This document shows positions 7,602 through 29,561 of a stretch of 64,000 nt of DNA, one piece after another. The notes below the pieces were generated by a model. The model was not told where the DNA came from, made no database searches, and saw only the letters and a list, made by a program, of their open reading frames with translations. Position 1 is the first letter of the stretch. Each line of letters begins with the position of its first letter. The stretch comes from a virus. Lineage: Duplodnaviria > Caudoviricetes. The stretch covers positions 64,001-128,000 of the IMG/VR virus record IMGVR_UViG_3300021387_000796. The stretch is one strand, 5' to 3'. The position numbers and the translations under genes are program-made.

Positions 7602-7726
7602 ATAGATGTGTGTTATTTTTCATATCGAAGTTGTATGTCATTTCGATATGAAAATGCTCGGATTTAAGTTCCAAGCATTTTTAATCCCCTAAGTTAATTC
7701 CTAGAGATATTTATTTTCTTTAGGGA

Positions 7727-8230: not shown

Positions 8231-8763
8231 TACTTTTTCACCCAATCGTTTAATTTATTTACATGAACGAATCTATCTTTAACTTCCATTTGCTTGCCTT
8301 TGTTAAAATGTTTGTAGTCTGTTGAAAGATAACCTGTTACACGAGCAAGATGCTCTATTTCGTTTTTATCTGCTCCACATTTAGGGCAAGGTTCTTCAAA
8401 TCCAATATTTTCATCACAACCGCATTTTTTGCAATGAGATAAAGGAAGATTCAATGCAAAATATGGTACATCTTTTTCTTTGGCATACAAAACAATATCT
8501 TCAAGAGCCTTCAAGTTGTTAGATGCGTTATCTCCAATTTCAACATATGTGATACAACCTGCTGATGAATAATTTGTCAATTGAGATTCAATATCAATTT
8601 TTTCAAAAGGAGAAACTTCCTTCCATACAGGAACATGAATAGAATTTGTGAAATATCCTCTAGGTTGAAGTTTTCCATTCTCATCTCTGTATGCAGTTAC
8701 ATTTTCAATGAGACCGTATTTTTTGACAAACTTATCGAATGAATTTTTTGACAATCCTTCTGC
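8230..8763 (-). CDS. nrdD: class III RNR C-terminal fragment (NrdD-b), exon 2
   Basis: AEGLS..., YFTNSIHVPV, Zn ribbon CKKCG..CPKCG, glycyl-radical loop ARVTGYL. Confidence 0.92.
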   Translation of the reverse strand, partial: AEGLSKNSFDKFVKKYGLIENVTAYRDENGKLQPRGYFTNSIHVPVWKEVSPFEKIDIESQLTNYSSAGCITYVEIGDNASNNLKALEDIVLYAKEKDVPYFALNLPLSHCKKCGCDENIGFEEPCPKCGADKNEIEHLARVTGYLSTDYKHFNKGKQMEVKDRFVHVNKLNDWVKK

Positions 8764-9055
8764 CGAAATTCTTTATATTTTCATATAAAGTCAGACTATA
8801 TTTTCATCTTTTATTTCTTTTACCAAAATAAAAGAGCCTCTCATTTCCAACATAAGTTGTACTCTACTCATTTATTCGCCTAAGTTTTTCTCTTAGGTTA
8901 TACTTTCGATAGTCGTTAGAGCCATCCATTTTTAGGACTTCCTACGGGGTTAGCCTGCTTATCAAGTTTAGCCTTTCTTATCAGATTATTACTCTTCGCC
9001 CGTTTAGAGAGGGATTTTCATTTACTGTCACCAGTAAAGCACCCACTTAAAATTT
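8764..9055 (-). ncRNA. ORF-less group I intron (292 nt) in nrdD
   Basis: 5' exon CACCU pairs with intron GGGUG (P1 with U.G); P3 CCUCUC/GAGAGG; P7 GACUAU/AUAGUC; terminal G at 8764; removal restores YYTP|AEG in frame. Confidence 0.92.
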
Positions 9056-9154
9056 AGGTGTATAATAAACTCCAAAATTCAATCGATATGATTTCTTTTC
9101 CTTTAATTCCTCAAGTGCTTTTTCATACACCTCTTTTAATTTTTTTTCATCCAT
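9056..9154 (-). CDS. nrdD: class III RNR C-terminal fragment (NrdD-b), exon 1 (not in ORF track)
   Basis: AGGAGG RBS then ATG 9154: MDEKKLKEVYEKALEELKEKKSYRLNFGVYYTP; LNFGVYYTP is conserved NrdD sequence; spliced product 210 aa. Confidence 0.88.
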
Positions 9155-10007
9155 TTAATATCCTCCTGAAATTTTCTTTTATATTTTCTTTATTGTTATA
9201 CCAATCACTTTCTTTAACTCGAAAAAGATTTATACCTTTTTCTTTACAGATTTTATTTTTTAAATTATCTCTTCTTTTCATGTCAGGAAGAGAGTGCCAA
9301 TAATCCCCATCATATTCGATTGCGATTTTCAAATCGGGAATATAAATATCTAATTCTAATGGGAAAATTTGTTCTCTATCAGAATGAATAGAATTTTCTT
9401 TTAATTGTTTTATGAATAAATAAAGTTCATCCTCACCTTTCGATGTTTTATAATTTTTATTTACCAAAAATCCACAAGTCACATCATATTTTTCTATCAA
9501 AGTTTGTTTTCTTTTATTTATAACATCTATCAAAAACGCAGGATTTTCAACATTATATTTATCCAATAATGATTCTTTTATTTTATTCTTTCCGATTTCA
9601 GAACTAAAAATATTAGTAGAGCCATATTTTTCTAAACAAGTATTTTTCATCTTTTGTTGAATTTCCTCGCATTTGGCTGGATTATCAACTCCATATTTTT
9701 CTAAACAAGTTTGTTTTATTTTATTTCTTAAATCCTTATCATTTTGGGCGCATTTAGAACTACAATATTTTGCAAATTTTCGATGTTTTATTGTATTAAT
9801 TTCTTTTCCACAAATTTTACATTTTGGTTTTTCTGTCAAATCATTCAATAAACAAATTCCCATTTCTTTTAAAGAATAATGTTGAGGAAAATATTTTTTT
9901 AATTCCAAAAGCAAATTTAAATTTTTCTTATTATTTAATATCTTATGCCAACATCTAGGATTATCACAAATAATCTTTAAAATTTTATTTTTTATTTCGA
10001 CATCCAT
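9147..10007 (-). CDS. free-standing homing-type endonuclease inserted in nrdD
   Basis: Cys motif CKICG..YCSSKC, KQTCLEKYGVDNP-type repeats, C-terminal Vsr/PD-(D/E)XK-like SKGE..ELDIYIP..AIEYDGDYWH; GGGAG RBS favours ATG 10007. Confidence 0.8.
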   Translation of the reverse strand: MDVEIKNKILKIICDNPRCWHKILNNKKNLNLLLELKKYFPQHYSLKEMGICLLNDLTEKPKCKICGKEINTIKHRKFAKYCSSKCAQNDKDLRNKIKQTCLEKYGVDNPAKCEEIQQKMKNTCLEKYGSTNIFSSEIGKNKIKESLLDKYNVENPAFLIDVINKRKQTLIEKYDVTCGFLVNKNYKTSKGEDELYLFIKQLKENSIHSDREQIFPLELDIYIPDLKIAIEYDGDYWHSLPDMKRRDNLKNKICKEKGINLFRVKESDWYNNKENIKENFRRILNG

Positions 10008-10017
10008 AATCACTCCC

Positions 10018-12345: not shown

Positions 12346-12364
12346 ATAGCATTACCTCTTTTAA

Positions 12365-12422
12365 TATATATATTTAGTGTTGAATTAAAGATAGTTACAC
12401 TTTAAGCCACAATATTTAGTGG
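12365..12422. promoter_or_regulatory. tandem NrdR-box-like sites upstream of nrdD
   Basis: CCACAATATTTAGTGG (12407-12422) and half-matching TATATATATTTAGTGT (12365-12380), 42 bp apart. Confidence 0.6.
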
Positions 12423-12511
12423 TTTAAAGTGTAATACATTTGAGAATATTTTTCAATATTTTTTTATAAAATCAGTAAGAATAATTCCATCCCTTTAGAG
12501 CGGTGTGTAGT

Positions 12512-15370: not shown

Positions 15371-15433
15371 ATAATTAAAACCTCATTATCATAGTTATTA
15401 AAATAGTTATTCTCTCTCAATAATAATTTTTTC

Positions 15434-15462
15434 TTGACAATGTTTTTAATATTATATATAAT
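15434..15462 (+). promoter_or_regulatory. consensus sigma70 promoter for the invertase
   Basis: TTGACA-N17-TATAAT. Confidence 0.8.
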
Positions 15463-15490
15463 TTGTTATAATTAAAAAAGGAGTTAATAA

Positions 15491-16171
15491 ATGATATACG
15501 GCTACATTCGAGTTTCTACAGAGGAACAAAATCTTGAAAATCAAAAGAAGGCTATTTTAGAACGATATAAAGTTCGAAAATGGATTGAAGAAAAGAAAAG
15601 TGGAACAATTGATTATCATAAACGAAATTTAGGTAATTTGATAAATCAATTGAAAGAAAATGATGTTTTGGTCGTTACTGAAATTTCAAGATTAGGTCGA
15701 AGTCTGAATATGATATTCAATATAATATCAGAATTAAAAAATAAAGGTGTTAGAGTAATAGCAATTAAAAATAATTTTGATTTGAATCCACAAAAGAAAA
15801 ACGATATAACATCTCAAGTCTTGATGTTTGCCTTTGGTTTATCAGCACAAATTGAGCGAGATTTAATTTCTGAAAGAACAAAACAAGGTTTAGCAGTAGC
15901 AAAATCTAAAGGTAAAAGAATAGGAAGACAAGTTGGTGAAAAAATATATAATGTAAAATTAAGAAGGTATGAAAAACAAATAATGCGAGATTATAAAAAT
16001 AATAAAAGTATAAATTCTATAGCGACAAAATACAATGTGAATTGGATAACGGTAAAAAGATTCATTGATGTATATTCAAAGATGGAAAAACCTGCTCCAC
16101 TTACAGAAAAACCAAAGAAACATGGACATCCTACATATGCTGAATTAGAATACTTTAGGACACATCCATAA
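15491..16171 (+). CDS. small serine recombinase (resolvase/invertase, Mpi-like)
   Basis: YGYIRVST catalytic Ser, EISRLGRS, FAFGLSAQIERDLISERTKQGL, C-terminal HTH. Confidence 0.9.
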   Translation: MIYGYIRVSTEEQNLENQKKAILERYKVRKWIEEKKSGTIDYHKRNLGNLINQLKENDVLVVTEISRLGRSLNMIFNIISELKNKGVRVIAIKNNFDLNPQKKNDITSQVLMFAFGLSAQIERDLISERTKQGLAVAKSKGKRIGRQVGEKIYNVKLRRYEKQIMRDYKNNKSINSIATKYNVNWITVKRFIDVYSKMEKPAPLTEKPKKHGHPTYAELEYFRTHP

Positions 16172-16233
16172 GTTAAACTATCAAGGAATATTAAAAAATA
16201 ACTATTTTATTGAATAAAATAGGAGAATGTGTT

Positions 16234-16452
16234 ATGAGAAATATAAATATTCCAGATAGCAAAGAACATTATGGTAGTTTCGTTTTAACAGAAGTTGCAG
16301 GTAATCACAAAACATTCATGGGTTTAAGTTCTGATGTTGCCCTTCTTCCTAATGAAATGGAAAATACAATTACAGGTTCATCTGCCTTTTGTGTAGATAC
16401 AGGGGAACTTTATCTCTATGAAGAAACTAGCAAAACTTGGTATCAAGTTTGA
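16234..16452 (+). CDS. small virion-associated protein (putative)
   Basis: AGGAG RBS; GSSAFCVDTGELYLY motif of the kind seen near fibre genes. Confidence 0.55.
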   Translation: MRNINIPDSKEHYGSFVLTEVAGNHKTFMGLSSDVALLPNEMENTITGSSAFCVDTGELYLYEETSKTWYQV

Positions 16453-16478
16453 TTTTAAGATTAATGGAGATTTAATTT

Positions 16479-17684
16479 ATGCTTGATATAATTACTTTAG
16501 CGGTTGCAGAAAAATATACAAAAGATACGGCTATTGCTTTAGGTGCGGTTAAAGGTGCGCCGTGTACAATTTCTAAAGTTGAAACTGTCGAAGATGGTAC
16601 AGAAATTACATTCAAATGGACAGGTGACGATGGAAGTACAAATACTAGAAAAATCAAAGTAATGGACGGTATTTCTGTTGTAAGTGGAACTATAGATGAA
16701 AACAAACATTTGATTTTAACATTAAGTGATGGAGCGGAGGTTGATTGTGGTGAACTTCCGTTAGTTGATGATGCTGAAGATGTAGCATACACACAACCTA
16801 AAGAACCAAGTGTTGAGAATGTTAAAGACGCTTTAGATTATTTTTTCGATAAACAAATTACTTCTGATGAAGTAGAATATACAAATTCTCAAACTCCTAC
16901 TATAGAAACCGTTAAAGACGCATTGGATTATGCAATTTCCAAAGGTGCTATTTTGGAACAATCTTTAACAGTAACTAACGCTATAGGTTCTGCAACTAGC
17001 GGAAAAACATACGCTAAAGGAACTTCTTTAGAATCAATAATAAGAAATATGTTGATTAAAGAAGTTGCTCCTAGTTTGTCACTTGCGATTGTACCTAGTA
17101 CAACATTATATGATGTTGTTGATACTTTGATTTCAACAATTCAAATGAAAGCAACTTGTACAAAGAACACTTATGATTTGAATAAAGTTGAATTTTATTT
17201 AAATGACGTATTAAAAAATTCGCAAAATATTACATCTAGTGGAATATATACTTATGATTTAAATTTTGATACACCAACAAATACTGATTTTACCGTAAAA
17301 GCAATTGTGTATGATAAAAAAAGTGGTACACCAATGAGTGCGAGCAAATCAATTACTGTAAAGTTTGTAGGTAAGAGTTATTATGGTACAGTAAGTGCTG
17401 ATGTTGGTGAGCCTACAGAAGCAATTATTAAGGCATTGCAAAATAATGTTCTGAAAGATACAAAGAATTTGACTTATAGTGGAATTACAATGGATTATGG
17501 TAAAGTTGTTTATGCTTATCCTAGTAGTTTTCAAAATCTCTCTAGTATCAAGGATTTAGTAAATAACCTCAATTATACCTCGTCATTTACAAAAACAACA
17601 GTCAGTGTGGATGGAATTTCTTATAATTGTTATACACAAAACGACCCTAGTGCTTCAACCGATGTACAATTGACTTTTGCTTAA
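16479..17684 (+). CDS. fibre/structural protein
   Basis: Thr/Ser-rich, NVKDALD repeats, Ig-like region; C-terminal domain paralogous to the next gene. Confidence 0.6.
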   Translation: MLDIITLAVAEKYTKDTAIALGAVKGAPCTISKVETVEDGTEITFKWTGDDGSTNTRKIKVMDGISVVSGTIDENKHLILTLSDGAEVDCGELPLVDDAEDVAYTQPKEPSVENVKDALDYFFDKQITSDEVEYTNSQTPTIETVKDALDYAISKGAILEQSLTVTNAIGSATSGKTYAKGTSLESIIRNMLIKEVAPSLSLAIVPSTTLYDVVDTLISTIQMKATCTKNTYDLNKVEFYLNDVLKNSQNITSSGIYTYDLNFDTPTNTDFTVKAIVYDKKSGTPMSASKSITVKFVGKSYYGTVSADVGEPTEAIIKALQNNVLKDTKNLTYSGITMDYGKVVYAYPSSFQNLSSIKDLVNNLNYTSSFTKTTVSVDGISYNCYTQNDPSASTDVQLTFA

Positions 17685-17702
17685 TAAATAGGAGAATTTT
17701 TT

Positions 17703-19829
17703 ATGATTTCAATTTTGGACCAATTCGACCTTCGTGCTAAAAAACAGAATTTTCAAAGAGATGCTTTTGAAACAATAGCAGACATGAAGGCATATTCTGA
17801 AAATTATCTACCCCCAATGTTCGATGCGTATTGTTATGAAGACGGTAAAAAATATAGATATAACGCTAGTAATGAAATTCTTGAAGATACAGGAAAATGG
17901 CGTGCAATCGGTGAAGGTGAAGGTGGTGGAGACCTTTCTTCATACTATACAAAAACTCAAATCAATAATCTTCTTGATGAAAAAGTTGATAAAGTTAGCG
18001 GAAAGGATTTATCGACTAATGATTTTACTGACGCTTATAAACAACAAATTGATGATAACGAAAGTGCAATAGAAACTCTCAATGGTGATTCCACTGTTGT
18101 AGGTTCAGTTGATTCTAAAGTTGCCACTGCATATTCAAATGCAACGAGTTATACTGACACGGAATGTACAAAGAAAGTGGACAAGGTGAGTGGAAAAGGA
18201 CTTTCAACAAATGACTTTACCGATGAACTCAAAACCAAGTTGGATAATCTTGAAAATTATGACGCCACTGCCTTGAGCAACAGAGTTACCGCAAATGAAA
18301 ACGCAATAACCGTTCTTAATGGCGATAGCACTGTAAATGGAAGTGTTGATAAAAAAGTTGCTAGTTGTTTATCTGACAGTAAAGATTATACAGATGTAAG
18401 TATACAAAATGCAATTAGACAAACAGCAATAGTTTGTGATGCAAAGCCTACGATAAGCGGAACTACAATTACTTATTATCAAGGTGGAGTTGAAAAAACA
18501 ATAACTTCTGATAATAAAACCAAATTTTATTATACAACTAGTAATGTAAATTATTCTACAATTTGGATTGAAGGAACTGAATTTACAGATACTCTTGCAA
18601 GTGTAGATTTTTCTGATTATGTTTCAAAGACAAATGATGTGACTTCCACATATACAGGAAGTGACGCTGATAAAACAAAAATACCAAATATCGGTGCTAT
18701 GGACGCATTGAAAACTTTGGTTGATACAGAATTAGATGAAAAAGTAAATATTTCGGATGTTGAATCTAGTGTATCATCTTCAAGCGATAATCCTGTTAAA
18801 TCATCTGTATTGTATACAGAATTTGCAAAGAAAGTTAATATTGACCAAGGCTCGGCAAACGAGGGAAAGATTCTTCAAGTTAATTCTAGCGGAAACCTCG
18901 GATTGGTAGACCCACAATCTACCGTAGATTTGTCAGATTATGTTTCAAAGACAAATGATGTAGTTTCTACATACAGTGGTCAAGAAGTCGATAAATCAAA
19001 GATAGGTGATTTAAATGCATTAGATGATTTAAAAGATTTGGTTGATACTGATTTGGCAACCAAAGTTGATATTTCTCAAGGAAGCGCAAACGAAGGAAAA
19101 ATATTACAAGTAAATGCTAGTGGTGATTTGGAGTTGGTAGACCCTAGCGCTTCTATGGGAAGTGATGCTAGTGATATAAGTTATACAAATAGTGATTTTT
19201 CTACATTAAATAATGTTAAAAAGGCTTTGGATAATTTGTTTAATAAAGTTTATTATGTTTCTCCATCGATTTCTTCATTTACTATGTCACCGAGTACAAC
19301 GGTTTATGAAACAGGAAGCACAGTTTCGGAACTTGTATTCAATTGGTCTTATAATAAAGATATTTCTGAACAGACTTTAACTGATTGTAGTTTAGCGGAT
19401 GAAACTGTAAGAACGGCGACCTATTCTACTCCATTCAGCACAAACAAAACATTTACACTTAATGCAACAGATGGCGAAAATAGCGTTTCTAAAAGTTTAT
19501 CAATACAATTTCAAAATAAAATTTATTGGGGAAGTGCAGAAACACCACAAGACTATAACAGTGCTTTCATACTTGGACTTTCTAGTTCTAAATTTGCGAC
19601 TTCATATAAAGGAAGTTATACAATTACCGCAGGTTCAGGACAATACGCTTATATTTGTTGTCCTAAATCTTGGAACATTCCTTCTGTATGTAAAATTTCG
19701 GGATTCTCCACAGAATTAGTAAAAGAAAACTCGATTAGTTTTACCAATAGTTCTGGTGGAGTCGTTGTTTACGATATATTAAGAACTACACATACAGGAT
19801 TAGGTTCAATTACGATGGTATTTGAGTAA
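17703..19829 (+). CDS. head/tail fibre protein
   Basis: KVDKVSGKGLSTNDFT repeats, LNGDSTVxGSV and QGSANEGKILQVN repeats. Confidence 0.7.
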   Translation: MISILDQFDLRAKKQNFQRDAFETIADMKAYSENYLPPMFDAYCYEDGKKYRYNASNEILEDTGKWRAIGEGEGGGDLSSYYTKTQINNLLDEKVDKVSGKDLSTNDFTDAYKQQIDDNESAIETLNGDSTVVGSVDSKVATAYSNATSYTDTECTKKVDKVSGKGLSTNDFTDELKTKLDNLENYDATALSNRVTANENAITVLNGDSTVNGSVDKKVASCLSDSKDYTDVSIQNAIRQTAIVCDAKPTISGTTITYYQGGVEKTITSDNKTKFYYTTSNVNYSTIWIEGTEFTDTLASVDFSDYVSKTNDVTSTYTGSDADKTKIPNIGAMDALKTLVDTELDEKVNISDVESSVSSSSDNPVKSSVLYTEFAKKVNIDQGSANEGKILQVNSSGNLGLVDPQSTVDLSDYVSKTNDVVSTYSGQEVDKSKIGDLNALDDLKDLVDTDLATKVDISQGSANEGKILQVNASGDLELVDPSASMGSDASDISYTNSDFSTLNNVKKALDNLFNKVYYVSPSISSFTMSPSTTVYETGSTVSELVFNWSYNKDISEQTLTDCSLADETVRTATYSTPFSTNKTFTLNATDGENSVSKSLSIQFQNKIYWGSAETPQDYNSAFILGLSSSKFATSYKGSYTITAGSGQYAYICCPKSWNIPSVCKISGFSTELVKENSISFTNSSGGVVVYDILRTTHTGLGSITMVFE

Positions 19830-20027: not shown

Positions 20028-21152
20028 ATGGGATTAATTACAAAAGAAGTTGAAATTAAAGTTAGCGGAACATCTTCATATTATGAAAAATTAGGGTATG
20101 ATGTACCAAAGCATAAAGTTAAAATATCAAAAGAACATCCGAATGGATATGCTTTCACTTTAGGAGAAAAATTTACAGTTAAAATTGAAGATTTACCTAA
20201 GTATTCTATTGCAAAAGTTAAAGTTATTTGTGATTGTTGTGGAAAAACAAAAGAAATAGAATATGGTAAATATATGCAAAGTAAATCAGCAAAAGAAAAT
20301 AAATATTATTGTGGAAATTGCGTATCAAAAGTTTATCTGTACGGTAAACATAACAAACGATATTCTTCTTTCAAAGAAGGAAGGTTTAATTTAGAATATA
20401 GAATGATGAAAAGAAATGTATTATCGAGGGATAATTATAAATGTGTTTGTTGTAGAAAAGATTATAAATTAGAAGTTCATCACTTGAACGGATATGATAA
20501 ATTTGAAGATGAAAGATATGATGTTAATAATGCGGTAACTTTATGTAAAAATTGTCATGATAATTTTCATGCTCGTTATGGTAAAGGAAATAATACTAGA
20601 GAACAATTTGAAGAATGGTTTGGTTCTGTCAAAGATATTGTGTCCAAAGAAAGTGTAAATTTAAATCGAGCAAGAGAAATATATTGTTTTGAAACTGATA
20701 AAATTTATGATGGAACATCTGATGTAATATTAAAATTCAGACCTTTAATATCAAAAACTGATAAAAAAGAAATATTAGATATGTGTAATCTCAAGAATAA
20801 TACTTTTTCAGTTAAAGGTTATCATTTTTTATGGAAAGATATTGCAGAAAAATTAACAAAAGATGAAATTGAACAATATATTTTAAATAATTTTAATAAT
20901 CCTAGACGACCTTTCGTTTTAGATTTATCTACATATTTTATTTTTTATAGCGGAATGGATAGAGATAAATATTTCAAAATACCTTTGAAAAGAACAAATT
21001 ATTATACTGCTCGTTACAATACATTTGAAAAAATAATGAATCATGATAAACAATGTGTAATTTATAATACTTTTTTAAATTTTACAAAAGAGCAACAAGA
21101 AACATTATTAAACGGAAACACACCTCGTTTGTATAATAAACTTATATCATAA
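20028..21152 (+). CDS. HNH homing-type endonuclease
   Basis: RDNYKCVCC..LEVHHL..NAVTLCKNCHDNFH; N-terminal CDCCG/YYCGNC zinc motif. Confidence 0.85.
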   Translation: MGLITKEVEIKVSGTSSYYEKLGYDVPKHKVKISKEHPNGYAFTLGEKFTVKIEDLPKYSIAKVKVICDCCGKTKEIEYGKYMQSKSAKENKYYCGNCVSKVYLYGKHNKRYSSFKEGRFNLEYRMMKRNVLSRDNYKCVCCRKDYKLEVHHLNGYDKFEDERYDVNNAVTLCKNCHDNFHARYGKGNNTREQFEEWFGSVKDIVSKESVNLNRAREIYCFETDKIYDGTSDVILKFRPLISKTDKKEILDMCNLKNNTFSVKGYHFLWKDIAEKLTKDEIEQYILNNFNNPRRPFVLDLSTYFIFYSGMDRDKYFKIPLKRTNYYTARYNTFEKIMNHDKQCVIYNTFLNFTKEQQETLLNGNTPRLYNKLIS

Positions 21153-21217: not shown

Positions 21218-22741
21218 ATGGCAGTAAGAATTGCAGATAGTCTTAAACAACAAAATGACTTAACTTCTTTCCCTGTAGCATATGGTTCAGATATATGGTT
21301 GGATAAAAATAAAGGGAGTGGAACTCCAAATTACGATTCAATTCAAAATATGTTGAATAATGACGAATTAGGCGGAGGAGGTTCTTCCATTCAAGTTGAA
21401 GAATTATCAATCGCATCATCTGAAGAAAGTGGTAAAATTTATCAATACATTGGAGTTAGCGGAACATACACAAAAGGATTTTTCTACGAATGTATGAATT
21501 ATGGTTATTATTGTTGGACTATCGATAATGACCGTTATTATACGAAAAGTACAGAAACTAAGGCGGATAAAAATGTATATGTAAAAAATGGCGACCTTTA
21601 TGAAGAAGTTGGTGTTATAGTTGAGGTATTTAATGACACTTTAACATTCGAAGACGATAATGAAAATGAAATAACTTTAGGTCGTTATTCAGATGGTGAT
21701 ATAACAAATGTTGGTTATGAATGGACAAGTATAAATGTTGAAGATGGTACAAGTGTTGTTGATGAGGTTGCTAGAGAAAGAGCATATGAAGCCATAGAGT
21801 TAGCAGAAACTAAATTAAGCAGAGTTACAACAATGCCTACAGACATTCAATATACGACTACGGTACTTTATGTCGGAGAAACTACGAGTAAATATACAAA
21901 AGGTCATATATATCAATGTACTCCTTATGAAAAGACATATTTAACAAGCAAAACTACATCTTCATCAATGAGTTTTGATTTAGATACTTTAGAAGAAATA
22001 AATTTTGACAAGATATTAATAAGTGAAGAATCTTATGATATAAGTGGTTTTACTTGTGATGGTAATGCAGTAAATTTATCTCGTGTTTATTTTAATGAGG
22101 GTGATGAACTTTCAACTATAGTTGCGTCTTATAGTGGTACAAGTTCATTAAAATACATCACTTCAATAGATTGGGAAAATAAAACTTTAGTTTTAGGTTC
22201 TTCAGTTACTTATACTTCTTTTGGCGGTTTCGGTTCAAACAATTTCATGAGTACCTATACGGTATTTGAATGGGTAGATATTTCACCGACTACTACAGTA
22301 GACCAAAGTTATAGTGCTACAAGTACAAATGCACAAAGTGGTGTAGCAGTAGCATCAGCGATATCAAGTGCAACAGAAGATTGTGTCAAGACTAGTGGTG
22401 AGCAAGAAATTGACGGGGATAAAACGTTTAATGATGGAATTTATACCGAACACATTCGTTCTCAAGGTGAGGGATTTAGTGGTGAAGTTAATCTCAGTAC
22501 AGGTTCGAATATAGGACATGTTGAACTTCTAGCGCCTGGTGCCAATACAGATGCCACAATCAAGGCTCAAGGTGGTAATAATAGTGAATCTTATGTAAAC
22601 ATGACTGCTGATTTAGTCAAAGCCAACAATAAGAATGTAGTTACATCTGTAAATAGCACACAAGCCGATAATAGTGGTAATGTAACGCTTTCAATTCCTA
22701 CAATAACGGTTGATGGTAATACGGCAACAATTATCTACTAA
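21218..22741 (+). CDS. tail fibre-like protein
   Basis: VDQSYSATSTNAQSGVAV, GEQEIDGDKTF and VTSVNSTQADNSGNVTL fibre motifs. Confidence 0.65.
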   Translation: MAVRIADSLKQQNDLTSFPVAYGSDIWLDKNKGSGTPNYDSIQNMLNNDELGGGGSSIQVEELSIASSEESGKIYQYIGVSGTYTKGFFYECMNYGYYCWTIDNDRYYTKSTETKADKNVYVKNGDLYEEVGVIVEVFNDTLTFEDDNENEITLGRYSDGDITNVGYEWTSINVEDGTSVVDEVARERAYEAIELAETKLSRVTTMPTDIQYTTTVLYVGETTSKYTKGHIYQCTPYEKTYLTSKTTSSSMSFDLDTLEEINFDKILISEESYDISGFTCDGNAVNLSRVYFNEGDELSTIVASYSGTSSLKYITSIDWENKTLVLGSSVTYTSFGGFGSNNFMSTYTVFEWVDISPTTTVDQSYSATSTNAQSGVAVASAISSATEDCVKTSGEQEIDGDKTFNDGIYTEHIRSQGEGFSGEVNLSTGSNIGHVELLAPGANTDATIKAQGGNNSESYVNMTADLVKANNKNVVTSVNSTQADNSGNVTLSIPTITVDGNTATIIY

Positions 22742-22791
22742 AAGTATTGATTTTATAAATAAATTGATGTATTTTTTTATAAGAGGATTAT

Positions 22792-23427
22792 ATGGGAACT
22801 TTAAATTTGACAACTGCGGATAATTATCTTACTGTTATCGTTAATGGTACTACAATCAAACAATTGTGGGCAAAACAAGGTAATGATGGAACACCTGTAA
22901 AAGTGTATCAAAAATGGAAAACAACTCATGTTACACAATACACAAATACTTTAGGAAACACTTATCGAGGTGGTGGTTGGGGAGTTAATTACAAATATGA
23001 AAGTGGAAGAAGCAGTTATTGTATTTATCGTTTGAAAACAACATTGAGTGTATCAACTTCTCGTTCAATAAGAGGTCGTGCATATATCGCAGGATACTTT
23101 AATGGAAGTCTGAAACGCACTAGTCCTTATTGGTATGGTGGGGGGAATCAATTGGAATACCTCGATGATTGTGAAACGGCATATGCATCGTACGATAGCA
23201 GTTATGATGAAAGAGCCTATGCTTGTTATTGGAGATTATACACATCAAGTGGTAGTAGCACTAGCGCAAGTTATGGTCCTGATATGTATACTACAACCAA
23301 TACTGTGCTTACACCTTATCACTCAGAATCTAGTACAGGTGCTATAGCAGGGTCTAGTACCTATGTTAATAGGGATTCATATGAAGGTTTAGATACATCT
23401 TATGATGTTAGAGAAGAAGATAATTAG
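22792..23427 (+). CDS. Ser/Thr/Tyr/Gly-rich protein, probable fibre tip or virion protein
   Basis: Composition and position after the fibre genes. Confidence 0.5.
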   Translation: MGTLNLTTADNYLTVIVNGTTIKQLWAKQGNDGTPVKVYQKWKTTHVTQYTNTLGNTYRGGGWGVNYKYESGRSSYCIYRLKTTLSVSTSRSIRGRAYIAGYFNGSLKRTSPYWYGGGNQLEYLDDCETAYASYDSSYDERAYACYWRLYTSSGSSTSASYGPDMYTTTNTVLTPYHSESSTGAIAGSSTYVNRDSYEGLDTSYDVREEDN

Positions 23428-23436
23428 GAGAAAATT

Positions 23437-24909
23437 ATGGCAAAATGTGATTGGTTTTATTATATTCATCCTTCAATTTGGAATGAAATGAAATTTCATT
23501 TATATCGTGGAATGAATTTGGTTTATAATGGTGAATTACCACAGTATGTGATTGATTTTTGTAATAAAACCGATGTTAATTTGATTCCTTTTTCAGAAAA
23601 GGATATTTATAATTATGAAGAAAGATTTTATAAATTAAAAAAAGAATGGTTACATGACGATGTTGAAAACAACAATTATTCTTTTGAAGTAAATCTCGAT
23701 GATTTATGGAATGAAAGTTGGGATGATATTATAGATGAAAAAACATTATATATCGAATGTAATGTCGATAATATTTGTACAACTTTGTATAACATGAGAG
23801 AATACAAATTTCGTTCTATTCAAAGAGGATGGCTTGAATTAGGTTATAAAATTATCCCTTTGTTTTGGAAAGAATTCATCCCATCACTCAATGAAAGTCA
23901 AATACATTTGGTTGAAAAATTTGATAATATTGCGTTGGCATCAGCATTTGATGTAGATAAATTCGTATGTAGAATTTCTTTATTTCCGAATTCTGTAGAT
24001 GAAATTACGGAAAGAAAATATATACACATTACATCTTCAGATGGTGGAAGACCATTACCATATTATCGTAGGTATTTTTTAAACGACAAACTTAATAAAA
24101 AATGGGGTGATGATTTAGCAACAAACGCTTTCTTGGGGGTAAATACTTCAAAATTGTGTGTAGTTTCACATCCTTCTAATTATATTCCACAATCAGAAAA
24201 AATTTTTTATGATAGAAGTGATAATTGGAAAGGTAGTGGTATGGATAAAGATAGTGAGGATTATATTTTAGAAAAGGCTGATTATATCACATGTTCTTCT
24301 AAGTGGTTGTATAACGATACCTTGAAATATCTTAAAGAAAATAGACCGAACGATGATGTAAAAGTTAAATATATTCCTAATGGTAATGTCATGTTTGATT
24401 ACCCTACTAATGTAGAAAAATTTGAAAAGCCTACGGCTATTTATGTTGGTGCTAGAATAAAGAAAACGGATTTACAATTAATTTATTTGCTTTGTGAAAT
24501 GAATCCTAATTGGAATTTTATGCTTTATGGTGAAGGTGCTAGTGATTTACTTTCAATACCGAGCAATTTATTTGTTCATGAAACTGTTCCAATTGAAGAA
24601 TTGTTTCCGATTATCTGCAAATGTCATGTTGGTCTTATAACATTAAAAGAAAATGAATGGACTGTTGGAATGTTACCTAACAAAGTATTCAATTACATTA
24701 ATGCAAGAATTCCTATTATTTATAGTGGTATCCCTGATATTAACATGGAAGATTATAAAGAATTTTCATATAACATTTCGGACATTTCATCTCTTGATGA
24801 AGTTCTCGAAAATAAGACTACTGCTGAAACATTTGATTCTTATAAAAGAGATTGGTCTACAGTTTGTGATGAAATCATTTCTTGTATAGATGAATTGGAG
24901 AATAATTAA
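23437..24909 (+). CDS. glycosyltransferase (GT-B/GT4-like C-terminal half)
   Basis: ADYITCSS, YIPNG, AIYVG, PNKVFNYINARIPII. Confidence 0.7.
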   Translation: MAKCDWFYYIHPSIWNEMKFHLYRGMNLVYNGELPQYVIDFCNKTDVNLIPFSEKDIYNYEERFYKLKKEWLHDDVENNNYSFEVNLDDLWNESWDDIIDEKTLYIECNVDNICTTLYNMREYKFRSIQRGWLELGYKIIPLFWKEFIPSLNESQIHLVEKFDNIALASAFDVDKFVCRISLFPNSVDEITERKYIHITSSDGGRPLPYYRRYFLNDKLNKKWGDDLATNAFLGVNTSKLCVVSHPSNYIPQSEKIFYDRSDNWKGSGMDKDSEDYILEKADYITCSSKWLYNDTLKYLKENRPNDDVKVKYIPNGNVMFDYPTNVEKFEKPTAIYVGARIKKTDLQLIYLLCEMNPNWNFMLYGEGASDLLSIPSNLFVHETVPIEELFPIICKCHVGLITLKENEWTVGMLPNKVFNYINARIPIIYSGIPDINMEDYKEFSYNISDISSLDEVLENKTTAETFDSYKRDWSTVCDEIISCIDELENN

Positions 24910-25928
24910 TGGGTTTTGTGGATAATATGAATGAACAAAAAATCCCATTCATTGGAGATAAATACAAATATGTTTATACTGGAACAGAATTGAATATCAA
25001 TCGCATTCGTCTCGCTTGGCACATAACAGATTGGTGTAACTATTCTTGTCCGTATTGTATTCAAAGTGTGAATCATCATTATGCTAAAGAACCTAAAGAA
25101 ACTCAAGAATATGTCGAATCTATGGCAAAATTATTAAGACCTAAGTTACACAAACAGAAAGTAACATTGACGCTTTACGGGGGAGAAATATCCACATATT
25201 ATAATCTGAGAAGAATTGTTGAAATTTTATTCAAAGATAATGAATCGGATGCCACAGTAACGTTACTTACTAATTTGTCCGCACCTCTTGAAAAATATAA
25301 AGATTTTATGAATTGTTCTGATAAAAACTTACACATTCGTATTATACCATCTTATCAATGGTCAAATGTTGATGAATTTATAAATAAATGCGTTTTTATA
25401 CGAAAATTTTTAGGAAATGCATTTCAATGTTCATGTGTTGTATTTGATAAGACGACTCTTGAACATCTCAAAGAGGTTGCTGAAAAATTTAGAAAAGCAA
25501 ATATCCCAATTCGTTTTACTCATGGAAGAATGCCAAAAAGTAATAACACATTTTATACTTTACAAGAAGGGGTATCTGATTTTATAATTAATTGGAATAA
25601 AAATGTATTTGAAAAAATAACATGTCATATTACTTATGCTGATGGTACAGAAAAGCCGTGTTTTGCTCGCTCTGATATACTTAAAGAAGTTGCTGATTAC
25701 CAAGGATTTAATGGTGCTTATTTTAAGGATATGATGTGTTTTACAGGACTTAATTTGACACCAAACGGTAATCTCCGTGCAGGAAGTTGTCCTGATAGAA
25801 GTAAATTATATATTGCTAACATTTTTGAAGATAAAGATTTTACATTGAAACCTTATAAGTCGAAATGTGAAGGAAAGGGTTTTTGTAACCTTTGTAATTC
25901 AATTTTAATTTGGAATGGGAAATATTAA
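24909..25928 (+). CDS. radical SAM protein with C-terminal Twitch/SPASM-like cysteines
   Basis: CNYSCPYC, YGGE, TNLS, C-terminal C..GSC..C..CNLC. Confidence 0.88.
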   Translation: MGFVDNMNEQKIPFIGDKYKYVYTGTELNINRIRLAWHITDWCNYSCPYCIQSVNHHYAKEPKETQEYVESMAKLLRPKLHKQKVTLTLYGGEISTYYNLRRIVEILFKDNESDATVTLLTNLSAPLEKYKDFMNCSDKNLHIRIIPSYQWSNVDEFINKCVFIRKFLGNAFQCSCVVFDKTTLEHLKEVAEKFRKANIPIRFTHGRMPKSNNTFYTLQEGVSDFIINWNKNVFEKITCHITYADGTEKPCFARSDILKEVADYQGFNGAYFKDMMCFTGLNLTPNGNLRAGSCPDRSKLYIANIFEDKDFTLKPYKSKCEGKGFCNLCNSILIWNGKY

Positions 25929-26817
25929 TATGCAAATCAAATGGAGATTGTTCAATAATTGTAATTTTCACTGTTCGTATTGTTGTAATAGTGTAATGAA
26001 TAAAGTTCAAAATCCTATTAATTTCGATAGACTTTTACGCATCGCTAAATCTATTCACAATTTGATTGAAAAAGATGAAGATGATGTTTTTGAAGTGAAT
26101 TTGATTGGTGGTGAAATAACTATGTTGCCACTTGAACAAATGAAAGAAATCATTAATACTATTTATTCAAAGAAAATTACTAAATTCCATATTACAAGTA
26201 ATATGTCTGCCAAAGTTGATTATTACATAGCAATAAATGAATTGTGTAATAAATTGAATGTTACATTAAAAATCGTAGGCTCGTTTCATGAAGAGATGAT
26301 GAATTATGATGTTTTTATAAAAAAGGCTAGGATGTTATCTGATAATTTGAAATTATTTATTGCCGAATTTGTGGTTACATCTGAAAATAAAGAAATTTAT
26401 GAAAAAATACAAGAGGATTGTAAAAAATATAATATTGCTTTGATGGTGGATTATAATAGAAAAGAAAAATGGGAAACGAATGATATTGATTATGATAATC
26501 GTAGTATTAAAAATTATCTTCGTATAATATTGAATCCTCAAGGATGCATTTGTAGTAATTCAAAATATATGATAAATGTTTTACCGCATGGCGAAGTTTA
26601 TGGTACAGTTTGTCATAACAGAAAACTTTTAGGTATGATTAACATGATAAAATCATTTCCACATGAAGAATTTATTTGTAAACAAAAAATATGTTCTTTT
26701 TGTGGTAAAATTGAAATAAAAACCCCTCAACAAGAAATTCTTTACTCTAATATAAATAATATCATTGTAAATGAAGATTTGATTAAAAAGCATAATGAGG
26801 AAATAAATGTTATATAA
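25915..26817 (+). CDS. radical SAM protein
   Basis: CNFHCSYC, IGGE, TSN, SFH, C-terminal Cys cluster. Confidence 0.88.
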   Translation: MGNINMQIKWRLFNNCNFHCSYCCNSVMNKVQNPINFDRLLRIAKSIHNLIEKDEDDVFEVNLIGGEITMLPLEQMKEIINTIYSKKITKFHITSNMSAKVDYYIAINELCNKLNVTLKIVGSFHEEMMNYDVFIKKARMLSDNLKLFIAEFVVTSENKEIYEKIQEDCKKYNIALMVDYNRKEKWETNDIDYDNRSIKNYLRIILNPQGCICSNSKYMINVLPHGEVYGTVCHNRKLLGMINMIKSFPHEEFICKQKICSFCGKIEIKTPQQEILYSNINNIIVNEDLIKKHNEEINVI

Positions 26818-27769
26818 ATATGTTCATCCTAGTAGTAACCCACAAATTAATTGTTGGTATATTGATTGGCACATAACAGATTGGTGTAACTATTCTTGTC
26901 CGTATTGTATTCAGACGATAGACCATCATTATGCGAGTCAACCATATGAATCACAAGAATTGGTTGAAAAATATGCAAAATGTATTCGAGAAAAAATTAA
27001 AGGTAGATATATTCATTTGTCATTACATGGTGGAGAAATATCGCAATATGATTTGTTATCCGTTTGTGAAATACTTTTTAAAAATAATAATGTTGTTGGA
27101 ACAGTAAATCTTACAACTAATTTATCAGCACCAATCGAAAAATATATTTCTTTTTGTGAACAAAATTATGGTGATAAAATTAAATTCAAAATAGTGTCAA
27201 GTTATCATTGGACAGATTTGCAAAAATATATTGATAAAGCAAAAATTCTCGCTAAAAATTATAAATCGTTTATGGTTGTTTCAGTAGTTCATGATAAAAT
27301 AACATTAGAACAGATGAAAGTCGTGGCTGAAACTTTTAAGGAAAATAAAATTCCATTTAAATTTACACACGGAAGAATACCAAACGCAAACGGAAAACTT
27401 TATAAAATATCGGACGAATGTTTGGAATATCTTGAAAAAATTAATTCCGAATTTAAAATCGATAATGCTAAATTGATTTATAGCGATGGTACAACGAAAG
27501 TATTTAAAAGTAGGAGTAATTTGTTAAATCAAGTAGCAACTGATTTGAATTTAGATGGTGCTAATTTCAAAGGAATGTATTGTTTTAGCGGTACAATAAT
27601 ATATCCTAGCGGAAAAGTATATTGTGGTAGTTGCCCTGATAGAAAGAAGATGTATAAAGGTTTGATTACTGACGAAAATGTATCTTTATCTCCTACCAAA
27701 GAAATTTGTGGTGGTAAAGGTTTTTGTAATCTTTGCGATTGTATGTTAATTTGGAGTGGCAAATATTGA
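26807..27769 (+). CDS. radical SAM protein (paralog of 24909..25928)
   Basis: CNYSCPYC, HGGE, TTNLS, GSCPDR..KGFCNLC. Confidence 0.88.
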   Translation: MLYKYVHPSSNPQINCWYIDWHITDWCNYSCPYCIQTIDHHYASQPYESQELVEKYAKCIREKIKGRYIHLSLHGGEISQYDLLSVCEILFKNNNVVGTVNLTTNLSAPIEKYISFCEQNYGDKIKFKIVSSYHWTDLQKYIDKAKILAKNYKSFMVVSVVHDKITLEQMKVVAETFKENKIPFKFTHGRIPNANGKLYKISDECLEYLEKINSEFKIDNAKLIYSDGTTKVFKSRSNLLNQVATDLNLDGANFKGMYCFSGTIIYPSGKVYCGSCPDRKKMYKGLITDENVSLSPTKEICGGKGFCNLCDCMLIWSGKY

Positions 27770-28404
27770 TTGTCTTTACAGTAAACCCCTATAACGATGA
27801 TGTTATAAACAGTCCTATACCACAATTCTGTATGAACAGTTGGAAAAAATTAGGATATGAAATTAAAGTATTTGATTATAACAGTGAAGAAGTAAAATAC
27901 GTCAAAGCGGACTGTCATGAACATTTTCAAGGTAAATCAATTTCAATTAAAACAGACGCTATAAGAATGTATATTCTTTCACAATACTCTAATCATTTGT
28001 ATCTTGATTGGGATGTTTATGTTCATAAACCTTTTGAATTAAAAGAAAAATTGATACGACCGTATTTTTGGTCTATTTATAATGCTGACGAATTAAATTA
28101 TTTTAAGGTATTGTATGAACGGTATAAATTAGGATTATTAAAAGATATGTATGACGCAGAAGTGTCTAAAATATTGAATATAAAGGATAATGGTGCTATT
28201 AATGAATTGAATCATCTTTATTCTGCTGATAGACCTTATTATTTGTTTTCGAACAATCAAGACACCGCTACAAAATATGCTCATTCTAAAGTATGTGTAA
28301 TTAATAATGGCGAAAATATTTTACGCAATGCTATAAATATTAAAGGTGATAAAGAATTGTTTGATTTTCTATCATCGTTAAAAAGGATACATGTATATGA
28401 ATAA
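27766..28404 (+). CDS. DXD glycosyltransferase (GT32/Och1-like); TTG start overlapping the upstream stop
   Basis: CMNSWKKL..YEIKVFD, TDAIRMYIL, YLDWDV. Confidence 0.7.
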   Translation: MIVFTVNPYNDDVINSPIPQFCMNSWKKLGYEIKVFDYNSEEVKYVKADCHEHFQGKSISIKTDAIRMYILSQYSNHLYLDWDVYVHKPFELKEKLIRPYFWSIYNADELNYFKVLYERYKLGLLKDMYDAEVSKILNIKDNGAINELNHLYSADRPYYLFSNNQDTATKYAHSKVCVINNGENILRNAINIKGDKELFDFLSSLKRIHVYE

Positions 28405-29512
28405 TACACAATTAATTTCGATGAATGATATTATGGCGATTGAACGACCATATGATAAAAGACCAATATTCAAAATCTCTTGGAAAATGACAGATTTTTG
28501 TCCTTATAGTTGTTCATATTGTTATATGGCTAATGCCGTAGAAAAAGCAAAGAAATGTCAAAATAATCCTACACAGTTTGATGTGGAAGAAATATCAAGC
28601 CGTATTGATGAATTGTTTGAATGTTTAGGAAATAAAAAAGATAGTATTCAGTTACATTTGATTGGTGGAGAACCGTCTATATTTAATCTGATTAAAGTTA
28701 TTGATAAAATCAAAACGCCTAATCTTAAATATTTGAATCTTGCGACAAATCTTTATCGAAATGTGGATTATTATAAAGAATTAAAAAGGTACTGTAACTC
28801 TCGTGGAATCGAATATGGTTCGTCTGCATCATTTCATATAACACAATGTAATCCACAAGAATATGTTGATAAAGTATTGGAGTTAGGCGTTCAGACAAAA
28901 ATAGTTGTCAATAATGAAAACTTAAAATTATATAAGCCTTATCTCGAAATGTTTATGAATAATAATATTTCAATTGAATTAACTGTAGAAAGAAACAGTA
29001 AAAATGAATGTGTGCAATTAACTGATGATAATTTGGATTTTGTTCAAAAAGTAAGAGAATATCAATTCAATCGTAAAATGCAACACAAATCGTATTTACC
29101 ATATTATACAGTTACATTAAGAAATGGTCAGAAGATAAATTACAGTTCAAACATCGCAATGATTAATTCAATCAAAGAAGGTGCGTTGGATACGACTGGA
29201 TTTTACTGTACCGCAGGTCTACACAATGTACGCATTGAAAAAAATGGAAATCTTAAAAGAAGTGCTTGCCGATTGTGTTCTATGTATTTTAAAATGGGTA
29301 ATATTCTAAAAGGCGATTATGAAAAACCAAATGGGGAAATAATCTGTAAGTGTGAAGAAAAAGGTAAAGATGGTATCTTGCAAGAAAAATATTGCACGGC
29401 ATTCAACAATACATCGATGTACAGATTGGGATATAATAGAATTAATGGTATTTATAATGAAAATCATGGAATAAAAATACCAAACTATTGGGAAGAAACC
29501 TACGGACAATAA
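28391..29512 (+). CDS. radical SAM protein
   Basis: CPYSCSYC, IGGEPS, ATNL, ASFH, CTAG..SAC auxiliary cysteines. Confidence 0.88.
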   Translation: MYMNNTQLISMNDIMAIERPYDKRPIFKISWKMTDFCPYSCSYCYMANAVEKAKKCQNNPTQFDVEEISSRIDELFECLGNKKDSIQLHLIGGEPSIFNLIKVIDKIKTPNLKYLNLATNLYRNVDYYKELKRYCNSRGIEYGSSASFHITQCNPQEYVDKVLELGVQTKIVVNNENLKLYKPYLEMFMNNNISIELTVERNSKNECVQLTDDNLDFVQKVREYQFNRKMQHKSYLPYYTVTLRNGQKINYSSNIAMINSIKEGALDTTGFYCTAGLHNVRIEKNGNLKRSACRLCSMYFKMGNILKGDYEKPNGEIICKCEEKGKDGILQEKYCTAFNNTSMYRLGYNRINGIYNENHGIKIPNYWEETYGQ

Positions 29513-29532: not shown

Positions 29533-29561
29533 TTGACATTCTTTTAAATTTAATGTATTAT
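29533..29561 (+). promoter_or_regulatory. sigma70-type promoter
   Basis: TTGACA-N17-TATTAT. Confidence 0.7.

Follow-up and report, generated by a model that had tools for sequence, protein, structure and literature searches.

We analysed a window of 64,000 nucleotides, bases 64001-128000 of a 218,066-bp IMG/VR virus record (IMGVR_UViG_3300021387_000796; CheckV completeness 92%; GC content about 29%), and describe here a putative tailoring cassette that sits inside the fibre gene block of this large gut or rumen phage. Seven plus strand genes fill positions 22792-29512 (6.7 kb). The first encodes a small soluble protein of 211 amino acid residues (p211, 22792-23427) and the second a 490-residue protein with a predicted GT-B glycosyltransferase part (p490, 23437-24909). 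They are followed by three radical S-adenosylmethionine (SAM) enzymes, which we term subtypes A (339 residues, 24909-25928), B (300 residues, 25915-26817) and A' (320 residues, 26807-27769), by a probable small glycosyltransferase with a DXD motif (p223, open reading frame 27733-28404, 223 residues, or 212 residues from 27766) and by a fourth radical SAM enzyme of subtype C (373 residues, 28391-29512).

Each of the six junctions between these genes is either an overlap of 1-14 nt or a gap of 9 nt, a spacing that suggests translational coupling throughout. This agrees with an earlier note on this DNA, which had described six enzyme genes with overlapping or abutting start and stop codons. The same note saw no terminator between the fibre genes and the cassette, and this also held: between 21218 and 29512 we found no convincing terminator, only two 5-bp stems inside coding sequence, a count at chance level. 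Downstream, a sigma70-like promoter (TTGACA-17-TATTAT, plus strand, 29533-29561), identified by consensus match only (11 of 12 positions), precedes the topoisomerase IB gene and may mark the downstream boundary of the cassette. No transmembrane segment is present in any cassette protein, family scans found no flippase, polymerase or lipid-carrier/initiating transferase among them, and the cassette holds neither a kinase nor a pyrophosphorylase. One copy of a T4-type late-promoter motif, TATAAATA, is found 31 nt ahead of the start codon of p211. Its 24 copies across the window are no clear excess over the 15.4 expected (3 of 100 shuffles reach 24), and we make no claim on expression timing.

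The four radical SAM enzymes all carry CxxxCxxC and GGE motifs that are invariant in their homologue alignments. Two of them match PF04055 over its gathering cut-off of 29.5 bits, namely A (43.7 bits, E=4.4e-11) and B (33.6 bits, with an additional Fer4_12 match of 29.3 bits), and two lie just under it, namely C (29.3 bits) and A' (27.4 bits), the latter being a paralogue of A with 45% identity and the same motifs. The conserved positions are C43-x3-C47-x2-C50 and G91-G92-E93 in A (16 sequences aligned), C16-x3-C20-x2-C23 and GGE 65-67 in B, and C37-x3-C41-x2-C44 and GGE 92-94 in C. Further cysteines are conserved in the C-terminal part: four in B (C213, C255, C260, C263), five in A/A' (C277, C294, C320, C326, C329; the same 16 sequences) and six in C (C273, C293, C296, C319, C321, C335). 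By their pattern these sets should be able to bind one or more extra [4Fe-4S] clusters. Their spacing deviates from the canonical SPASM motif. At E<=0.01, none of the four enzymes had a SPASM-type or Fer4_14-type family among its listed Pfam matches, so the term "auxiliary cluster" reflects the cysteine pattern alone. The four radical SAM enzymes of the earlier note are thus confirmed by their invariant motifs; of their Twitch/SPASM-like character, the conserved C-terminal cysteines stand, whereas the hidden Markov models (HMMs) of SPASM and Twitch domains do not match.

HMM cross-comparisons (E-values 1e-14 to 1e-25) place the four enzymes in one family with three subtypes, A/A', B and C, which no curated subfamily matches above its cut-off. 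Among 5.8 billion proteins, homologous clusters number 14 for subtype A and 47 for subtype C, which is the most conserved member (65-66% identity across cassettes). The sole solved structure found by a PDB profile search with subtype A is MoaA (E=4e-4). None of the four matches N_Twi_rSAM (NF033640) at E<=1, and weak NCBIfam similarity to the peptide maturases QhpD, PapB, YhhB and SkfB is limited to the N-terminal cluster-binding region and falls 10-30 times below the cut-offs. In a separate profile search, the C-terminal cysteine-bearing part of subtype C (29172-29485, approximately residues 277-365) weakly matched the ApaG domain of human FBXO3 (PDB 5hdw, E=0.0045), probably by chance.

The best NCBIfam/PADLOC matches are to prokaryotic viperin and STM4011-type models, again in the N-terminal cluster-binding region only and with scores 5-6 times below cut-offs. 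Prokaryotic viperin models (NF038283, PDLC02903) lead for all four enzymes, with E-values of 5e-11 to 1e-7. Taken at face value, they would suggest viperin-like enzymes that turn nucleotides or nucleotide sugars into modified small molecules serving counter-defence or takeover within the host. We consider this the least probable of the readings discussed here. The matches reach 31-42 bits against a cut-off of 180 and lie within model positions 2-98 of about 260-280, spanning only the first 80-98 positions. We know of no viperin with conserved C-terminal cysteine clusters of the type found in the four enzymes, which counts against a viperin-like role, and such a role would leave the fusions with GT-B enzymes described below, the link to fibre genes and p211 unexplained.

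p490 has no Pfam match even at E<=10 and no match in a PDB sequence-profile search. Its AlphaFold2 model (predicted local distance difference test score, pLDDT, 90.8) consists of an N-terminal alpha/beta domain and a GT4-like part. Residues 192-490 align with whole GT4-type enzymes (VIA-align Z 20.8-19, 271-284 residues, root-mean-square deviation 3.1-3.9), among them sucrose-phosphate synthase, HepE, BshA, WaaG, PglA and PimA, and are predicted to form a complete GT-B glycosyltransferase, as the earlier note had proposed. Residues ~1-190 form an extra domain that is specific to the family and hardly involved in these fold matches. A phmmer search returned 562 relatives, of which only about 10 clusters are full length; the others share the GT-B part, and some carry Glyco_trans_1_4 or Glycos_transf_1, providing a transitive link to these families. 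In agreement, ESM-Atlas features relate p490 to Glyco_trans_1_4 clusters at 0.96-0.97. Residues R211, R212, D262, G338, K343 and K416 are invariant in 26 sequences and are candidate catalytic or donor-binding positions. In NCBIfam, p490 matches TuaH (teichuronic acid; E=1e-9) far below the cut-off, and in Foldseek (E down to 2.8e-9) its top match is a capsule-synthesis multienzyme.

The evidence for p223 is weaker. Its match to PF04488 (Gly_transf_sug; E=0.011, 16.8 bits) is below the cut-off of 23, while ESM-Atlas features (0.94, 175 shared features) yield 19 matches to viral Gly_transf_sug/Caps_synth clusters and an L-D-[WL]-D motif is conserved in 4 homologues. For the DXD glycosyltransferase of the earlier note, a conserved D-x-D and the Atlas similarity thus go with a Pfam match below the cut-off, and p223 is best described as a probable small GT-A-type (GT32-like) enzyme. 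Translation probably starts at the TTG at 27766; the Atlas sequence begins at residue 12. The gene was found only in the window and in two of the related contigs, L006 and L001 (two copies in the latter).

These related contigs, designated by L numbers, were fetched via homologous clusters; proteins of relatives are designated P0064, P0048, P0070 and P0083. The sources of the contigs are JGI sample 3300028591, human gut metagenomes, of which one bears the label Hadza, and further samples of gut type. The arrangement p211-glycosyltransferase-A-B-(A')-C recurs in six or more further phage contigs of gut or rumen origin with different phage backgrounds, the enzymes being 38-66% identical. L006, a sister jumbo phage, has all seven cassette genes. 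L001 encodes a 207-residue p211 homologue (p207), the glycosyltransferase, A, two B genes, a 200-residue protein, A', two DXD enzymes, C and a short dehydrogenase. In L005 a tail-fibre-like 561-residue gene, a 197-residue gene and a short dehydrogenase precede p231, the glycosyltransferase, A, B, A' and C. The most compact version, on L002-L004, comprises a short dehydrogenase, p222, the glycosyltransferase, A, B and C, without A', and has a tyrosine integrase 5 kb away. A distant relative, L016, encodes a 230-residue fibre-like protein, a p211 homologue, a 469-residue glycosyltransferase and radical SAM enzymes. The gene neighbourhood is conserved in that the cassette order is kept in L001, L002-L004, L005, L006 and L016 and the position beside fibre genes recurs. 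The minimal shared set is p211, the glycosyltransferase, A, B and C, to which A' and the DXD transferase are accessory, and this recurrence suggests a self-contained, horizontally mobile unit.

More distant contigs retain a smaller core. L009 has genes for a tape measure protein, a 1304-residue host-specificity/tail-fibre protein, a glycosyltransferase of 443 residues, a C-type radical SAM enzyme (E=1.9e-82), a short dehydrogenase and a B-like radical SAM enzyme, and L015 has genes for a Laminin_G fibre protein, small proteins, a glycosyltransferase, a C-type enzyme, a 362-residue protein, a short dehydrogenase and a Stealth protein. In others the two activities are fused into one polypeptide: a 699-residue glycosyltransferase-radical SAM(C) protein downstream of a Collar-domain fibre gene (P0064, L007:6446-8545), a 992-residue protein with the order radical SAM-glycosyltransferase-radical SAM(C) (P0048, L008:8001-10979), a glycosyltransferase-radical SAM fusion on L010 (P0070, 8001-10025) and a further one, P0083. 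HMM typing shows that it is the C subtype that accompanies the glycosyltransferase in distant contigs, either adjoining it or fused to it (L007, L008, L009, L015). The GT-B and C-type enzymes thus appear to be an old core pair. The fusions are strong evidence for a single pathway shared by glycosyltransferase and radical SAM enzyme, which probably touch each other physically, and they favour chemistry on or beside a sugar over independent crosslinking of a peptide. In L001, L005, L007, L009, L015 and L016, the genes that come before the core are of the tail-fibre, Collar, Laminin_G or host-specificity kind. Our literature search found no paper on such fusions or on this A/B/C radical SAM family.

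The cassette is usually accompanied by a gene for a short protein of the UDP-glucose/GDP-mannose dehydrogenase family, seen in L001, L002, L005, L008, L009 and L015. This protein has 219-270 residues, with the NAD-binding and central domains and without the UDP-binding domain. The L002 copy (2616-3381, 219 residues) seems truncated or frameshifted, two small overlapping open reading frames there matching the same HMM. The phage studied here has a distant copy of its own (G000:C1:137814-138527, minus strand, identical to L011:1315-2028), an open reading frame of 237 residues (E=4e-12, about 26% identity, no Pfam match) that lies approximately 10 kb beyond the window end and 45 kb from the cassette. 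A different arrangement was seen in L012 (GCA_902730945.1, CACVHG010000001.1, 240,683 bp), a widespread gut jumbo phage with a protein on 61 contigs, where seven paralogous radical SAM genes of the A/B/C family form one block (7303-17416); HMMs detected no p490-type glycosyltransferase, p211 or short dehydrogenase in it. Searches of 50,697 GenBank phage records with the region (nucleotide) and with p490 and subtype C (protein) gave no match, pattern scans of IMG/VR with the subtype C and p490 alignments found no relatives, and a p490 pattern scan of 185,579 GTDB species genomes found no close relative; these searches turned up no cultured phage, and with no relatives in the pattern scans, no host or prophage can be named.

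p211 is the sole non-enzyme of the mobile unit. Across nine aligned homologues and the L016 protein, residues 1-43 hardly change and the sequence ends in a conserved R-x-E-D-N, whereas the middle and tail vary widely and contain no invariant cysteine or other obvious core motif. The Ser/Thr/Tyr/Gly richness that the earlier note had pointed out is evident, as these residues make up 48% of positions 61-152 and 54% of positions 153-211. The protein has neither a signal peptide nor a transmembrane segment. Its AlphaFold2 model is all-beta, with pLDDT of 75-90 for residues 55-150 and poor values for the N-terminal 50 residues and the tail, and fold searches (Foldseek against PDB and BFVD, VIA wide) returned only generic C2/Ig/FnIII-like sandwiches (E>=6e-3, Z<=6.7). 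Seven homologous clusters were identified, and the N-terminal motifs, when searched in the other proteins of the genome and in related loci, were confined to p211 homologues.

The position of p211 relative to p490 is fixed. In six contexts (the window, L001, L002-L004, L005, L006 and L016) it immediately precedes a glycosyltransferase that keeps the extra N-terminal domain. What lies before p211 varies: some contigs have a fibre gene there, and L002 and L005 have the short dehydrogenase. p211 is therefore tied to the glycosyltransferase and not to a particular fibre gene. In comparison with the sister phage L006, the enzymes retain 86-96% identity but p211 only 71%, and the fibre genes can be aligned only in part, so that p211 diverges in the manner of host-recognition and fibre genes. 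Adjacency to the glycosyltransferase, conserved ends and fibre-like divergence together make p211 the best candidate for an acceptor or partner of the enzymes. L015 is an exception, with a small Tyr/Ser/Arg-rich protein of 175 residues and no detectable p211 homology before its full-length glycosyltransferase. On L010, a 228-residue Cys/Tyr/Trp/Gly-rich protein of no known family (7305-7991) is encoded directly before the fusion gene and is a possible radical SAM substrate and positional analogue of p211. A complex prediction for p490 and p211 (score 0.11, mark 0.32) is evidence neither way.

The design of p211, with conserved N-terminal ~45 residues and extreme C-terminus around a variable middle, also raises the possibility that it is a precursor in the style of peptides that are made by ribosomes and modified after translation (RiPPs) or protein-derived cofactors. 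Its N-terminal part would then be a leader, and a piece from the variable region or the R-x-E-D-N end, crosslinked by the radical SAM enzymes and glycosylated, would be displayed or set free, for instance to act as a signal or in the manner of a bacteriocin. Mycofactocin offers a precedent, since there a radical SAM enzyme and a glycosyltransferase act on a ribosomal peptide. The presence of several radical SAM enzymes with auxiliary-cluster cysteines, the weak similarity to QhpD, PapB, YhhB and SkfB and the Cys-rich small protein before the L010 fusion fit this scheme as well. We nevertheless find it quite unlikely. At 211 residues, p211 has a core that is predicted to be a folded beta-sandwich, unlike a peptide-type precursor; its variable part lacks an invariant cysteine or obvious core motif; the maturase matches do not extend beyond the N-terminal region and stay far under their cut-offs; and neither a PqqD-type or RiPP recognition element (RRE) domain for leader binding nor a protease or exporter was detected in the cassette. 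For the earlier note's candidate substrate, then, membership of p211 in the system has been strengthened by its fixed place beside the glycosyltransferase and its being the only non-enzyme, but the folded beta-sandwich does not resemble a peptide-like precursor.

Taking these observations together, we tentatively favour a reading in which the cassette tailors p211, the neighbouring fibre proteins or both with a glycan and radical chemistry at the host-recognition apparatus, p211 being the likely acceptor. Here we infer the acceptor, the donor, every chemical step and the location of p211 in the virion. The apparently intact enzymes, their coupling, recurrence and fusions, the fibre-side position, the fixed order of p211 and the glycosyltransferase and the divergence of p211 all support tailoring of a protein, as do the small Tyr/Ser-rich or Cys-rich proteins before the glycosyltransferase in L015 (175 residues) and L010 (228 residues). 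The absence from the cassette of transmembrane segments, a flippase, a polymerase and a lipid-carrier transferase points in the same direction. The earlier note had already proposed a tailoring system for virion fibres; the enzyme identities and the recurrent fibre link uphold it, whereas peptide crosslinking, which it included, is less favoured than sugar chemistry on account of the fusions, and p211 is predicted to be folded.

As we picture it, the enzymes would recognise the N-terminal ~45 residues of p211, perhaps together with its R-x-E-D-N end, and the best candidate for the recognising part is the N-terminal domain peculiar to the p490 family. With a nucleotide sugar as donor, the GT-B part would attach a hexose or a hexuronic acid to Ser, Thr or Tyr in the variable, Ser/Thr/Tyr/Gly-rich part of p211, and the DXD transferase, where present, would add a second sugar. 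The C-type radical SAM enzyme, as the obligate partner of the glycosyltransferase, and then the A and B paralogues would use 5'-deoxyadenosyl radical chemistry and auxiliary Fe-S clusters in modifying the sugar once it is attached, or the bond that holds it; candidate reactions are oxidation, epimerisation, deoxygenation, decarboxylation and a sugar-to-residue crosslink. Neighbouring fibre proteins, at the host-recognition end of the virion, may be modified too. Aquatic phages have oxygenase-rich islands, to which such tailoring would be the counterpart that needs no oxygen. In a narrower version, the GT-B and C-type enzymes would form an obligate pair that installs a so far undescribed type of protein modification: it would attach a sugar to Ser, Thr or Tyr of p211 as a hypervariable virion adhesin and, under anoxic conditions, radically rearrange the sugar or crosslink it to the protein; this version is conceivable but doubtful.

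Several observations weigh against protein tailoring. p211 matches no known structural-protein family in Pfam, PHROG or NCBIfam, and both its place in the virion and the glycosylation of any protein are proposals read from sequence. The glycosyltransferase/radical SAM core occurs without a detectable p211 homologue in L007, L008, L009 and L012, so p211 is not a universal acceptor. GT4-type enzymes act on lipids, small molecules, polysaccharides and DNA besides proteins, and the fold ranking of p490 fails to separate these classes of acceptor. The company of the short dehydrogenase fits sugar metabolism generally, not protein modification specifically. Finally, the 6 kb upstream of the first radical SAM gene of L012 contain no fibre gene, and the only nearby fibre-type gene there encodes a beta-helix (pectate-lyase-like) protein approximately 2-3 kb downstream of the radical SAM block.

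Sugar metabolism directed at the host rather than at the virion has to be considered in this light. The soluble enzymes and the short dehydrogenase might edit nucleotide-sugar or lipid-linked precursors of the host during infection or lysogeny and so alter a capsule, a teichuronic-acid-like polymer or an O-antigen, which could serve superinfection exclusion or keep progeny from sticking to debris; p211 would then be an unrelated fibre accessory, for example an assembly factor. TuaH is the only curated sequence match for p490 and its relatives (E 1e-9 to 1.5e-15), although p490 reaches only 37.6 bits against a cut-off of 550, and the capsule-synthesis multienzyme at the top of the Foldseek matches likewise suggests envelope polymers. 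Some cassettes contain Stealth_CR2 capsule-type phosphotransferases and UDP-glucose-dehydrogenase-like genes, and one lies near an integrase, like lysogenic-conversion genes. The authors of work on pelagimyophage islands preferred modification of the host O-chain (PMC7029224). We regard host-envelope remodelling as unlikely all the same: membrane proteins, flippases, polymerases and initiating transferases are all missing from the cassette; p211 adjoins the glycosyltransferase even where the dehydrogenase gene parts it from the fibre gene; and the cassette sits within the fibre gene block of a large phage in whose window family scans showed no integrase.

Another acceptor that the fold matches bring up is DNA. 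T4 alpha-glucosyltransferase (1y6f) is among the GT-B matches of p490 (Z 17.3), but ranks below approximately 29 ordinary GT4 enzymes. T4 alpha- and beta-glucosyltransferases glycosylate DNA bases, and radical SAM enzymes contribute to thymidine hypermodification in some phages. By analogy, p490 could glycosylate the bases of the phage DNA and the radical SAM enzymes edit the appended group, so as to evade restriction or CRISPR, and genes for topoisomerase IB, ThyX and NrdD are found nearby. However, no dCMP/dUMP hydroxymethylase of the ThyA family was found in the 218-kb record (PF00303, E<=0.01; 92% complete) by a search that detected the family in 10 of 14 control genomes, a result that speaks against DNA glycosylation in the T4 style. 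The presence of ThyX points to dTMP being made in the ordinary way, the cassette lacks a kinase and a pyrophosphorylase and occurs on an integrase-bearing contig, its position is on the fibre side in many phages, and the promoter-like site separates it from the topoisomerase gene. DNA hypermodification, which the earlier note had kept as an alternative, is weakened by the missing hydroxymethylase and the occurrence beside an integrase, and we now judge it very improbable.

Comparison with known systems places the proposed tailoring of p211 and fibres between several precedents. Pelagimyophages and cyanomyophages have a host recognition cluster with glycosyltransferases, UDP-glucose-dehydrogenase-type genes and variable radical SAM cassettes among tail-fibre genes, of untested function (PMC7029224, Zaragoza-Solas et al. 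2020). In T4-like genomes this cluster is located between VrlC and gp14. The window and its relatives resemble this cluster in having glycosyltransferase and radical SAM genes amid tail-fibre genes. However, those clusters and islands extend over 20-45 kb, belong to T4-like phages of aerobic marine and freshwater habitats and are rich in GT8/GT2 enzymes and oxygenases, whereas the cassette described here is compact (6.7 kb, seven genes), belongs to gut phages of anaerobes, has a dedicated hypervariable small protein and shows glycosyltransferase-radical SAM fusions in relatives. A literature search combining radical SAM and glycosyltransferase with phage, fibre, UDP-glucose dehydrogenase or jumbo phage retrieved no functional study.

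In the mycobacteriophages Che8 and Rita, phage-encoded glycosyltransferases glycosylate the phages' own structural proteins, the major capsid proteins (Freeman et al. 2023, Cell Host Microbe, as cited in PMC11256854). They are the only experimentally shown precedent known for the function proposed here. Tail tube proteins are reportedly acceptors in these two phages as well. Unlike our cassette, the Che8 and Rita systems involve no radical SAM enzymes and their hosts are aerobic actinobacteria; we claim no sequence relationship between the two. Closer in fold are GtfA/GtfB and Gtf3/GtfC of streptococci and lactobacilli (PDB 4pqg, 5e9t, 3rhz, 3qkw, 4w6q, 9htx), cytoplasmic GT-B (GT4-like) enzymes that O-glycosylate Ser/Thr-rich adhesins. 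In these serine-rich-repeat protein systems a dedicated surface protein is glycosylated and the glycan is then extended by further transferases. In structure p490 matches them comparatively well (Foldseek E 2.6e-8 to 1e-6, Z 17-18), but identity is only 11-15%, and GT4 enzymes acting on lipids or small molecules score equally well or better. Serine-rich-repeat loci also lack a radical SAM partner, and the N-terminal domain of p490 is unrelated to them by sequence. The four radical SAM enzymes, in turn, share the CxxxCxxC core and a Cys-rich C-terminal extension with SPASM/Twitch enzymes such as anSME, BtrN, MoaA, QhpD and the sactisynthases, but differ from them in fitting no curated subfamily above its cut-off and in non-canonical cysteine spacing, and their substrate class cannot be read from sequence.

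The surroundings of the cassette support the earlier note's description of the upstream genes as fibre-like. A 708-residue protein (17703-19829, plus strand), which lies outside the mobile cassette, matches PHROG 32680 tail fiber (E=1.5e-5) and is 62% identical to a gene of L006, over 270 residues only. It has a GKGLS-x-NDFTD repeat in common with a 952-residue protein encoded on the minus strand. Directly upstream of the cassette, a fibre-like protein of 507 residues (21218-22741, plus strand) has no family match; its N-terminal 184 residues are 80% identical to the L006 gene, the remainder is unalignable, and there is weak similarity to genes in the fibre position of L001. Genes near the cassette also encode an NrdD-type anaerobic ribonucleotide reductase with an intein-like insert, a serine recombinase, HNH endonucleases, a eukaryote-type topoisomerase IB and ThyX.

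The serine recombinase (15491-16171) is of the Hin/Gin type with a helix-turn-helix and lies in a segment (12512-19829) that comprises the 952-residue gene on the minus strand and the 401- and 708-residue genes on the plus strand, so that two divergently oriented fibre-like genes, encoding the 952- and 708-residue proteins, flank it. Both of these proteins are homologous to the product of the single 751-residue fibre gene of L006, which has no recombinase, 952-residue gene or 401-residue gene. Just beyond the 3' ends of both gene sets are the arms of an inverted repeat (12458-12477 and 22745-22764; 20 nt, 90% complementary). The arrangement could be a fibre-switching inversion or an inserted element of fibre and recombinase genes; the repeat is AT-rich and may have arisen by chance. 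A free-standing HNH endonuclease gene (374 residues, 20028-21152) lies between the 708- and 507-residue fibre-like genes, and its counterpart at this site in L006 is a different gene of 493 residues, 36% identical.

Islands of glycosyltransferase and radical SAM genes beside fibre genes are already known; new here are the compact modular cassette, an uncurated radical SAM family, the dedicated small protein and the glycosyltransferase-radical SAM fusions. The radical SAM family is now defined by its subtypes A, B and C, with 14 to 47 clusters in 5.8 billion proteins. At 6.7 kb the cassette is small enough for testing, with seven soluble genes, one obvious candidate acceptor and natural fusions that pair its enzymes. 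If the proposed tailoring is real, phage virion glycosylation would extend from mycobacteriophages to gut and rumen phages of anaerobes, and radical chemistry would join the repertoire of virion modifications, with a bearing on host range, on shielding from proteases and immunity in the gut and on the design of phage particles. Should the narrower proposal for the GT-B and C-type pair also be true, a virus particle would for the first time be seen to undergo radical-SAM-dependent post-translational modification, and glycoprotein chemistry would gain a new enzyme family.

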